Positions 5,064-7,339 are shown, counted from the first letter of the stretch. The stretch: DNA of 7,339 nucleotides from Betaproteobacteria bacterium (GCA_009921265.1 RFYV01000104.1:1-7339); one strand, 5' to 3'. Numbers and translations: made by a program. Notes: generated by a model not told the origin, from the sequence alone.

Positions 5064-5630
5064 TTAAACTTTGTTAAACAAAAACAACTCCCACTTTGCA
5101 ATCGAAAGATTAACAAGAGCAGAACTTTCAATGATGTACTTAAATTTGCGTCGGTGCTCAATAATATCGTTTACATAACCCCAAGAAATATCTTTACTCT
5201 TGGCACTTGTGTAAGACAAAATAATTCTATCTACAGGGCAAATTTTTGGTTCTTGAATTAAGTTCAAGCACCACAAATACTTTATGTAAATCGAAATGCT
5301 TTTCTGTGCATGGGAGATTCTAAATTCCGAACCATCTCGACTATTGCTTTGGAAATATGCTCCGAATTTATTGTTCATTTCTTTTTTAAGTTCAGAAACA
5401 ATTAACTCATATTCAGATATTGCAACCTCATTTTCAAACTTCAATCCAATTTTTCGCAAGCAGTCAAACCAGTAACTTCGAATCTCTTTTCTTATCGGTA
5501 TTGCCAAATCTTTTGTGTATAAAACATTGTGTTGTACGGCCGCTTTTACTGCATTCGATAAAGCAACTTCAATCGAATTAGTTGGATTGTATTTTTTTAA
5601 GAACTCTGTTTTACACACTTCAACATTCAT
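5064..5630 (-). CDS. hypothetical protein (188 aa), first gene of the AT-rich cassette
   Basis: ATG at 5630-5628 lies 1 nt after the stop codon of the integrase relic. The product appears helical and contains FRISHAQKSISIYIKYLWCLNLIQEPKICPVDRIIL. I cannot assign a family from memory. Confidence 0.8.
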   Translation of the reverse strand: MNVEVCKTEFLKKYNPTNSIEVALSNAVKAAVQHNVLYTKDLAIPIRKEIRSYWFDCLRKIGLKFENEVAISEYELIVSELKKEMNNKFGAYFQSNSRDGSEFRISHAQKSISIYIKYLWCLNLIQEPKICPVDRIILSYTSAKSKDISWGYVNDIIEHRRKFKYIIESSALVNLSIAKWELFLFNKV

Positions 5631-5631
5631 C

Positions 5632-5724
5632 TCACGCCAATCTTTCTGCTGCCATTGTTGCGGTTAGTTTGCTGTAGTGCTGTTCCAAAATTCTCACGCT
5701 ATTGCCCATTTGCTTGCTTAACGT
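5632..5724 (-). pseudogene. relic of the last 30 codons plus stop of a second, diverged tyrosine integrase
   Basis: The minus-strand translation TLSKQMGNSVRILEQHYSKLTATMAAERLA-stop matches the C-terminus of the intact integrase at 29 of 30 residues. It includes the catalytic-Tyr region. No upstream integrase sequence is attached. Confidence 0.85.
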
Positions 5725-6053
5725 TATTTTGGTTTTCCATCTTTGTCAGATACACGCCATCCTTTATAAGCAAGACAACTTCTTACTTGTTGTTCGTTAG
5801 CCTCGCATCTTGTACCGCCAGGAGTTGAGTTTGTAAAACAGTCCATTCCACCAGTTAATGCATTTTTATTACAACTTGTATATGAACTTGGGCCGTATTG
5901 TTGGCAATTATTTCTCGCACTTTCAGATTTGCATTCAGCCTCTTCAGACTTAAACATGTATCCTGGCTTTGAAGCATGAGAATAGTATGTAGTACACGCA
6001 GTTAAAACTGTTGTTGTAATTGCAGTAATTAGTAATTTAGCAGTTCTATTCAT
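5724..6053 (-). CDS. small cysteine-rich lipoprotein (109 aa precursor)
   Basis: ATG at 6053-6051. The signal peptide MNRTAKLLITAITTTVLTAC ends in the lipobox LTAC. The mature part contains six further Cys. The track's 174-aa version is an out-of-frame extension into the integrase gene. Confidence 0.85.
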   Translation of the reverse strand: MNRTAKLLITAITTTVLTACTTYYSHASKPGYMFKSEEAECKSESARNNCQQYGPSSYTSCNKNALTGGMDCFTNSTPGGTRCEANEQQVRSCLAYKGWRVSDKDGKPK

Positions 6054-6055
6054 AG

Positions 6056-6148
6056 TTACGCCAGCCTTTCCGCCGCCATCGTTGCCGTTAACTTGCTGTA
6101 GTGCTGTTCCAACATACGCACGCTGTTGCCCATTTGCTTGCTTAACGT
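6056..6148 (-). repeat. integrase 3' terminus, direct-repeat partner of 5632-5724
   Basis: In a hand alignment, 79 of 93 nt are identical. Homology stops sharply at 5724/6148 on one side and at the stop codons on the other. Confidence 0.85.
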
Positions 6149-7339
6149 GTGTATGTCTGTACCAGACAACAGTTCCTGTGTAGCGTATGTGTGTCGCAGA
6201 CTGTAGAGCGTGCGTCTCTGCCCTGCCCCATCCGTAAGTAACCCACATTCTCTTACAAGTTTCATAAACATACCATTAAAAGTACGTGGACGCAATCCAT
6301 TTGCGTTTCTAAATATGTACTTGTTAACCCTACTCAATACCGCGTCTAACGGCTGTCCCGCCAAGTCCAGTTGACGACTACACAATCGTTGCAGAACTGT
6401 GACAGCCTCGTGTTTGGCTATTAGGTAACGTTCGCCAGTTTTGCCGCTTACTCGCACACGCAGATAACGCACCTTGTCGTACTCGTACCATTCGCAATCA
6501 CGCCATTGCACATTCATTGCTTCTGTTCCGTGTCGCATTCCTGTTAACAAAAGAAACTCTACGTAGTCGCAAACTAACGGACGTTGCAATCTGTCAAACT
6601 CTTGTGTGCCTTGCAGTTCCCAAGTTGCCATAAATGCACGTAACTGTGCAATTTCTTCTGCACTAAATGCAGGACGCACACTACCCTTCTCACCTTTACG
6701 TGACAATTTAGGCAACGGCACACGCTCGCTAATCCACCCACGCTGTATTGCAGTTGTGCAAACACGGTTAAATGCACTTGCAAAGTTCATTAGCGTGCTT
6801 GATTTAGGTTTGCGTTGCATTTTGTTGTTTCGCCAACGCTCAAACTCTGCAATGTTGTCGTGTTTTATGTTTTGCAGATGACGTTCGCCAAAAAACGGTA
6901 CAAAGTAGCGTTCAATAATGCTGATGTAATCAACATAAATCTTCTTACCTGTGCCTGTAGTCAAGTCACGTTGCAATTCTTCTACAGTAATGCGTGCAAT
7001 TTCTGCAAATGTCTTCTGCACTGGTGCAAGTCCAAGCCGTTCTCTGTAGCGTGCTTCGTCATACAAGTCGCACGCAATCTGTTGTGCGTACTCCAATGCA
7101 GTTTTTCGTGTGCTTACACGTACCCACGCACCATTATACAGTCTGTATCTGCATTGCCACACGCGACTGCGTGCACGTTTGTATAAAACAACTTCTCCGT
7201 CACGCAAATAATGCAATGTTTCTTGTGCTGGCTGTTGTAAGTAGTCTGCAATTGCAACAATTTTGCGTTGTGCAGATGCAATTGCAGTTGTGATTTGCAG
7301 ACTGCGTGCAAATGGATACGTTAATTGCGTTTGTTTCAC
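6056..7339 (-). CDS. int: tyrosine integrase of the island (427 aa or more; the start is at or beyond the window edge)
   Basis: The N-terminal arm-type region reads VLYKRARSRVWQCRYRLYNGAWVRVSTRK. The catalytic domain has LLLTGMRHGTEA (Arg), LYSLRHTYAT (Arg-His) and LEQHYSKL (Tyr). The codon at 7339-7337 is GTG, so the ORF may continue upstream. Confidence 0.93.
   Translation of the reverse strand: MKQTQLTYPFARSLQITTAIASAQRKIVAIADYLQQPAQETLHYLRDGEVVLYKRARSRVWQCRYRLYNGAWVRVSTRKTALEYAQQIACDLYDEARYRERLGLAPVQKTFAEIARITVEELQRDLTTGTGKKIYVDYISIIERYFVPFFGERHLQNIKHDNIAEFERWRNNKMQRKPKSSTLMNFASAFNRVCTTAIQRGWISERVPLPKLSRKGEKGSVRPAFSAEEIAQLRAFMATWELQGTQEFDRLQRPLVCDYVEFLLLTGMRHGTEAMNVQWRDCEWYEYDKVRYLRVRVSGKTGERYLIAKHEAVTVLQRLCSRQLDLAGQPLDAVLSRVNKYIFRNANGLRPRTFNGMFMKLVRECGLLTDGAGQRRTLYSLRHTYATQELLSGTDIHTLSKQMGNSVRMLEQHYSKLTATMAAERLA

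Follow-up and report, generated by a model that had tools for sequence, protein, structure and literature searches.

Campbell-type or 'ends-in' insertion-duplication, known from suicide plasmids and amplifiable units, proceeds by recombination with a target copy, leaves direct and reciprocally hybrid repeats on the two sides of the insert, and finds its counterpart in an empty site in relatives. The translocatable unit of IS26 consists of one copy of the repeat plus the adjacent cargo and is incorporated beside an existing copy; a RecA-dependent route for this incorporation exists, and the units build arrays of direct repeats interleaved with cargo. In integrons promoterless genes are stacked by the integrase and expressed from upstream, the newest lying nearest to the integrase and each unit having its repeat. 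Islands that regenerate the 3′ end of a gene (tRNA genes; orfX/rlmH in the case of SCCmec) bring a replacement end, carry the displaced end as a repeat on their far side and can be stacked serially. Tandem accretion at one att site and minimal mobile elements combine cargo, with conserved flanks permitting replacement of what lies between them.

The locus described here, a joint inside the 3′ coding end of the integrase gene of a small integrative element, resembles each of these systems and differs from each. It shares with Campbell-type insertion the repeats and the empty site, but the events are natural, recurrent and take place between mobile elements, via a circular intermediate that we infer; since homology is provided by the 3′ coding end of the integrase that the element itself encodes, the gene is regenerated, unlike in plain Campbell-type insertion. 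Whereas IS26 supplies its own transposase, the repeat here is an integrase fragment of 12–150 codons without a transposase function of its own. In contrast to integrons, there is no IntI-type integrase, attI or attC, the cassettes follow the integrase gene and are read in the same direction, and the exchange is apparently homologous or illegitimate rather than site-specific. Insertion into tRNA genes and orfX is site-specific with a fixed core, whereas here the edges vary, a core is not detectable and the inserts contain no recombinase. Finally, in tandem accretion and at flanked hotspots the seam lies at an att site or between genes; here, where the integrase and orf77/orf302 are the conserved flanks, it lies within the integrase coding end and leaves coding relics. 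Searches of the accessible literature turned up nothing on DUF6641, on this family of elements or on relics of integrase ends that act as joints for cargo.

The window (the whole stretch of 7,339 nt that was analysed, the reverse complement of positions 1048–8386 of contig L001) is a 7,237-bp (7.2-kb) tRNA-Cys integrative element of freshwater Comamonadaceae, which exists in circular form too, at least in the assemblies. On L001 a tRNA-Gly and a tRNA-Cys gene are located just upstream of the integrase, the latter at a distance of 165 nt, and the far end of the element carries a repeat of the tRNA 3′ half (attR; Table 1). Three contigs (L003, L005 and L007) contain the sequence of the window in circularly permuted form. 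The ends of L005 overlap by 99 nt and its attP junction consists of the attR-left arm joined to the attL-right arm, which makes an excised or episomal form likely. With a tRNA-adjacent integrase, a tRNA 3′ repeat at the far end and a circular form, the element is of the tRNA-targeting integrative type. Scans of the window for tRNA genes and Rfam families found nothing, the att fragment being a partial tRNA only.

The integrase belongs to a large family (2,482 matches at E<1e-20), the named hosts of which are freshwater Burkholderiales, namely Limnohabitans, Polynucleobacter and metagenome-assembled genomes of Comamonadaceae. IMG/VR contains only 3 relatives of the element, so the family is not obviously viral. 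In the 169 loci fetched for comparison, tblastn revealed a conserved order of integrase, variable cargo, orf77, orf302, a 190-aa tyrosine recombinase on the opposite strand, orf102, DUF6641 and orf62. The lipoprotein gene, orf188, orf124 and orf54 of the window have no homologues in these 169 loci (tblastn), from which we conclude that the stretch right behind the integrase is a variable cargo slot. In the window the slot is AT-rich (27–37% GC, versus 44–46% for integrase and backbone). Neither promoter-like nor terminator-like sites turned up on the coding strand from 4400 to 6400; given the tight spacing of the genes, the cargo, all of which would form a single operon immediately behind the integrase, would most simply be read through from it. 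The 190-aa recombinase, which is kept in about 90 related loci, has a catalytic domain only and gives weak matches to models of Xer and Fim-type invertases; upstream of its gene about 880 nt (1865–2742) are devoid of a convincing open reading frame. Two related elements stand in tandem at one tRNA gene (Phe, Met) in L046 and L138, and also in L040 and L103.

Table 1. Features of the window and lengths of the integrase-end relics in related loci (A-type, sequence like that of L175; B-type, sequence like that of L170).
Feature	Position	Strand	Evidence or length
Complete tyrosine integrase, 427 aa, GTG start at 7339, TAA at 6058-6056	6056..7339	-	Pfam PF00589 (1.4e-9); PHROG 1 integrase (2e-39); gene call in L001
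Resident repeat copy: last 30 codons plus stop, catalytic Tyr in ...HYSKL...	6056..6148	-	sequence type matches L170/L013
Putative inserted module, 424 nt: B-type integrase end, ct, lipoprotein gene	5725..6148	-	absent from L174/L175; present in L170; breakpoint
Gene for predicted 109-aa cysteine-rich lipoprotein, cargo of the module	5724..6053	-	open reading frame; signal peptide plus lipobox LTAC read from the sequence
Relic: displaced A-type integrase 3′ end, 30 codons plus TGA	5632..5724	-	joined to downstream gene by TGA-g-ATG
Older cargo block orf188-orf124-orf54, GC 27-35%	4518..5630	-	orthologous to the block directly behind the integrase in L174/L175
orf188	5064..5630	-	
Start of conserved backbone (far end of the variable cargo slot)	2743..4497	mixed	tblastn across 169 loci
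orf77	4497-4264	-	backbone, tblastn
orf302	4220-3312	-	backbone, tblastn
190-aa tyrosine recombinase	2743-3315	+	backbone, tblastn
attR, 75-nt repeat of tRNA-Cys 3′ half plus 21 nt	247..321	-	end of the 7.2-kb element; 96% identical att repeat
Relic in L012			12-14 codons
Relic in L127			about 15 codons
Relic in L091			23 codons
Relic in L014			27 codons
Relics in the window and L170			30 codons
Relics in L017, L018, L020			31-33 codons
Relic in L169			40 codons
Relic in L058/L109			51 codons, plus degenerate third copy
Relic in L025			62 codons
Relic in L122			88 codons
Relic in L071			150 codons

The integrase is a member of the tyrosine recombinases, its PF00589 score being 38.4 bits against a cut-off of 27.1 bits. 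The motif LRHTYAT...HYSKL is invariant in 37 homologues, and the part of the gene that is repeated includes the catalytic tyrosine of HY. An assignment to the integron integrases was rejected (TIGR02249, 20 bits versus a cut-off of 265; PRK15417, 16.6 versus 435).

A repeat scan of the window yielded one outstanding pair of direct repeats, 5634–5724 and 6058–6148 (91 nt at 87% identity), all others being at most 29 nt long at about 75%. This bears out the initial annotation, according to which the 3′ end of the integrase is present twice, around a single lipoprotein gene. Aligned codon by codon (MAFFT), 5632–5724 and 6056–6148 are identical at 80 of the 93 nt that make up 30 codons plus stop, and the 13 differences amount to ten synonymous codons, one exchange of Met for Ile (M409) and a change of the stop from TAA to TGA. 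A count by hand of 79 of 93 nt with 14 differences, 12 of them synonymous, had the single Met-Ile exchange and the stop right and the identity and the synonymous changes wrong; the AGA/CGT pair, once taken for a three-base swap, differs at two bases only. M409 is invariant in 37 aligned integrases and Ile is found in the copy at 5632–5724, which indicates that this copy is a relic that has begun to decay. The longest exact runs shared by the two copies are 23 and 20 nt. As had been annotated, the homology stops at 5724/6148, 5724 being the last-read base of the lipoprotein TAA, and the joints are those seen at the outset: read along the minus strand, the integrase (7339–6056) is followed via TAA-ct-ATG by the lipoprotein gene (6053–5724), this by the relic (5724–5632), and the relic via TGA-g-ATG by the 188-aa gene (5630–5064). 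The insert is therefore flanked by direct repeats of its target (6056–6148 and 5632–5724), as in insertion-duplication. Other identities considered for the relic were discarded: as a pseudo-att it is no more similar to the tRNA-Cys att than shuffled sequence, and as an attC or RNA structure it has a fold z of 0.13, no Rfam match and no excess of synonymous conservation.

The gene between the two repeats, for a putative lipoprotein, starts 2 nt after the integrase stop. The predicted N-terminus of its product, from signal peptide to lipobox, reads MNRTAKLLITAITTTVLTAC, and the homologue on L170 keeps LTAC. Pfam, PHROG, NCBIfam and PADLOC returned no match for the protein; its sole homologue among 5.8 billion proteins (P0122, 81% identity) occupies the same position on L170. 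As to the extent of the module, the crossover point is ambiguous within the first approximately 23 identical nt of the repeat. Some gene callers report a 174-aa open reading frame at 5724–6248 on the minus strand (L009), which overlaps the integrase end in another frame and is an upstream extension of the lipoprotein frame; in L005–L008 nothing is called there, and automated annotation of the joint is thus inconsistent.

In the relatives L174 and L175 the site is empty: a complete 427-aa integrase is followed directly by TGA-g-ATG-orf188-orf124-orf52, the orf188 homologue being 93% identical to that of the window at the amino acid level. This is the variant, with the integrase immediately before the 188-aa gene, the existence of which had been predicted. 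The last 93 nt of the L175 integrase differ from the relic of the window at 4 of 93 positions and from the resident end of the window at 12 of 93, while the relic differs from the window's own integrase end at 13 of 93; the relic thus stems from another integrase allele, and a recent local duplication is not its source, as had been deduced from the pattern of differences. Homology between the window and L175 resumes exactly at the left edge of the relic and continues for 1.2 kb at 90%. The empty target site in the relatives therefore matches the displaced copy, again as in insertion-duplication. Behind orf52, L175 carries a second integrase-end relic of 25 codons, followed by TGA-aa-ATG and a signal peptide, which suggests that the orf188 block itself was added earlier in the same manner. 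For orf188, orf124 and orf54 no function emerged from Pfam, PHROGs, NCBIfam and PADLOC. The AlphaFold model of orf188 has a pLDDT of 94 and consists of an all-helical domain, for which there was no PDB match at E<0.001; of the 42 homologues of orf188 some are found in other mobile-looking gene arrays (in the neighbourhood of a DUF927 primase), contexts that are uninformative.

L170, the diverged relative, has the layout integrase end, TAA-cg-ATG, lipoprotein gene (81% aa identity) and, through an identical junction (CCAAAATAA followed by CGT), a relic, which is of the same sequence type as the integrase end of L170 itself. Over alignment columns 900–1080 the body of the L170 integrase is only 64–83% identical to that of the window. 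The same lipoprotein and the same junction behind so divergent a body mean that the module sits in two integrase backgrounds.

With L175 as proxy of the 'A' parent and L170 as proxy of the 'B' parent, the integrase of the window is A-type (like L175, L014 and L091) up to column 1212 and B-type (like L170 and L013) from column 1215 on. The informative sites are 44 A versus 10 B up to column 1212 and 1 A versus 11 B from 1215, and the maximum chi-square breakpoint falls at position 21–24 of the repeat (permutation p=0.0002), where the 23-nt run that is identical in both copies of the window ends. A breakpoint near codon -31 had been proposed as a feature to look for, and there it is. About 1,190 nt of the integrase are A-type and only the last 70–90 nt or so are B-type; the switch in parentage hence lies inside the resident copy of the repeat, where insertion-duplication would place it. 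L175 and L170 are cousins of the true parents (93% nucleotide identity for the integrase, 86% for the lipoprotein gene), so that the parentage is read through proxies. Two B-type sites just upstream of the repeat (columns 1174 and 1179) were counted against the insertion. Moreover, the integrase genes of this clade are mosaic in general, and a separate crossover could by coincidence have occurred near the repeat. L011 shows an independent crossover within the 93 nt of the repeat: the left part of its integrase end is B-type, the right part A-type, and A-type cargo is joined to it. Micro-relics were looked for in L011 without success. The clade of L017 and L018 gave no usable breakpoint because the integrase ends are nearly identical to those of the relatives.

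We consider it probable that the 424-nt promoterless module entered by homologous recombination inside the integrase terminus, that is by insertion-duplication. The ancestor would have resembled L174/L175, with the integrase stop, one base and the ATG of orf188. The module would have consisted of the last approximately 93 nt of a related B-type integrase plus the lipoprotein gene and would have been inserted in the Campbell or 'ends-in' manner, by a crossover in the 23-nt run identical in both alleles. The incoming end would then complete the integrase, and the original end would be displaced downstream as the 93-nt relic still fused to orf188. The module probably came from an element resembling L170, with near-identical integrase ends already present on both sides of the lipoprotein gene; from there it could have been looped out, or both repeats could have served as homology arms. 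The route of the recombination (circle or linear DNA, dependence on RecA) and the direction of the transfer we infer. As a circle, the element would give co-resident copies a chance to recombine. Against this history counts that the homology extends over only 93 nt at 86%, a length and identity at which RecA-type recombination should be rare; nor was a circle of the 424-nt module or the reciprocal product of the crossover observed. The origin of the first duplication lies outside the route proposed and needs one illegitimate junction.

Integrase-end relics mark at least about 10 independent events among about 170 related loci and are sometimes stacked. A motif scan, tblastn and an HMM of the last 60 residues detected additional integrase C-termini, all of them behind a complete integrase and in the same orientation as it, with lengths of 12, 15, 23, 25, 27, 30, 31–33, 40, 51, 62, 88 and 150 codons (for the loci, see Table 1). 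Of the 13 loci of the tRNA-Cys clade whose sequence continues for at least 1.4 kb past the integrase, 6 have a relic. L017 and L018 diverge from each other exactly at the integrase stop, as do L014 and L091, and in both pairs homology returns further downstream, which makes the joint a site of turnover. The idea that the integrase 3′ end is a hotspot of cargo exchange thus holds, with some ten or more independent joints and close relatives that differ exactly at the stop. In the sub-clade of the window the next gene typically begins 0–2 nt after the stop of the integrase or relic and often encodes a small lipoprotein with a MINKIKLL-type signal peptide. Throughout the family the conserved integrase terminus would serve as portable homology by which cargo is swapped or added at the integrase stop, a relic remaining whenever the event adds instead of replacing. 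Short relics predominate, presumably because recombination with the resident gene would eliminate long integrase repeats; the final few dozen nt of a relic would provide the following gene with its native upstream sequence, the ATG of that gene lying 1–2 nt past the stop.

Several of these loci deserve mention in their own right. In L058 (about 9100–10100) and L109 (about 10100–11100) the full integrase, a degenerate relic of about 19 codons followed by TAATG, and a 51-codon relic are arranged in series; three serial integrase ends imply two successive additions. In L122 (9001–10510) a tRNA-Lys integrase, 55% identical to that of the window, is followed after 26 nt by an 88-codon relic of the tRNA-Cys type (88% identical), as if, on an otherwise related element, the integrase and with it the target specificity had been exchanged. 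In cargo that is orthologous apart from this segment, L018 has 233 nt including a relic (2809–3041) where L023 has 153 nt of unrelated sequence (2809–2961), between flanks that are 93–96% identical; the relic itself is therefore polymorphic.

The main competitor, in which two islands stood in tandem at tRNA-Cys, a B-type one with the lipoprotein gene and an A-type one with orf188, and an illegitimate deletion ran from behind the lipoprotein gene to codon -31, is unlikely in our judgement. Arrays from which to start do occur among the related elements (in L046 and L138 the second integrase is preceded by another copy of the tRNA 3′ end, and the two integrases of L040 and L103 are 6–7 kb apart), the relics of 88–150 codons and the partial second integrases of L071, L143 and L169 resemble deletion products, and relic edges vary as illegitimate deletion would make them; tandem arrays probably explain some of the longer relics elsewhere in the family. 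In the window such a deletion would have left a wholly B-type resident integrase, yet the A-type stretch of the gene is about 1,190 nt long and gives way to B-type only at the repeat, so that an extra homologous crossover at that very place would be needed. The identical lipoprotein/relic junction behind the other integrase body of L170 would in any case require a later transfer by recombination, and the tRNA-Lys integrase with a tRNA-Cys relic in L122 cannot derive from a tandem array at one tRNA. Of the two histories drawn up initially, tandem islands with a deletion or entry of a cassette of about 425 nt by recombination in the integrase terminus, the breakpoint thus favours the latter. Quite improbable is a one-step, homology-facilitated illegitimate recombination in the window lineage, with the integrase homology as anchor and the far end joined at codon -31, L170 having received the arrangement later. 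Some such event must have made the first junction, the relic edges of independent events do differ (-23, -25, -27, -30 and -32 codons), and in L014 an upstream cargo reading frame runs into the relic as it would at an imprecise joint. One step fails, however, to give a B-type relic in L170 and an A-type relic in the window behind the same junction, unless homologous exchange within the repeat is added, whereby it becomes the insertion-duplication that we prefer.

We assign a very low probability to a dedicated integron-like system, in which one of the two tyrosine recombinases of the element would recognise a core site within the integrase 3′ end and insert circular cassettes there. Promoterless cassettes stacked by the integrase, each preceded by the same repeat, the fastest turnover in the integrase-proximal slot and a second small recombinase conserved in the backbone would all suit it. 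The left edges of the relics, however, vary from 12 to 150 codons and define no fixed crossover core; in 136 integrases the last 30 codons have a synonymous diversity of 0.81 and the remainder of the gene one of 0.84 (normalised codon entropy at conserved residues), so a constraint at the DNA level is not visible in the integrase end; and the same cassette is not found in many contexts, the lipoprotein having one homologue. The likeness to the regeneration of tRNA 3′ ends, drawn in the initial annotation, does not extend to the mechanism, since nothing indicates a dedicated site-specific one. That the arrangement is an assembly or chimera artefact is next to impossible. All sources are metagenome assemblies, but ten contigs from different samples and assemblers have the same arrangement at 99.8–100% identity, which argues against an error of assembly, and the diverged orthologue L170 keeps the architecture; two repeat copies that differ at 13 sites cannot be a collapsed or duplicated read path.

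Similar scars in many related elements indicate that cargo genes are regularly swapped at the integrase end. The mechanism supported is insertion-duplication and its like, ordinary homologous and occasionally illegitimate recombination between related elements, for which no new enzymatic mechanism is required. Very small integrative elements can in this way shuffle and stack cargo without a dedicated cassette recombinase, and since each additive event leaves a datable scar, the relics record the order of cargo acquisition. The family is widespread in abundant freshwater bacteria (Limnohabitans, Polynucleobacter and other Burkholderiales), and the slot is rich in fast-evolving small lipoproteins, which may affect interactions at the cell surface, for example resistance to phages or grazers. 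If frequent or selected, the process would be a simple integron-like accretion of cargo that annotation pipelines miss or read as 'truncated integrase'. We are doubtful about the stronger proposal that the integrase 3′ terminus is a selected, recombination-based docking joint, a RecA-dependent counterpart of the integron, with relics kept for translational coupling. Under that proposal promoterless cassettes, mostly small lipoprotein genes, may travel as 'integrase end plus gene', co-transcribed with the integrase and starting 0–2 nt after a stop codon, and the relic, an in-frame ATG-to-stop mini-ORF ending 1–2 nt before the next ATG, may preserve the coupling.

In L011, L012, L013, L014, L016, L091 and L175 the cargo slot is occupied by different small lipoproteins and secreted proteins. 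Several cargo genes of the tRNA-Cys clade share a signal peptide of the MINKIKLL/MTNKIKL type and start 2 nt after a stop codon; such shared 5′ ends may extend the homology available for recombination. L173 (IMG/VR UViG_3300000553_003694) has a lone 23-codon relic at 8001–8069, with a C5 DNA methyltransferase gene on either side; the 8 kb upstream of this relic contain no integrase. The same joint is slightly altered in L013 (about 1518–1533; P0002), where the integrase has lost its stop, GCA AAA being found in place of GCG TAA, and the protein is extended by the four codons KQLT.
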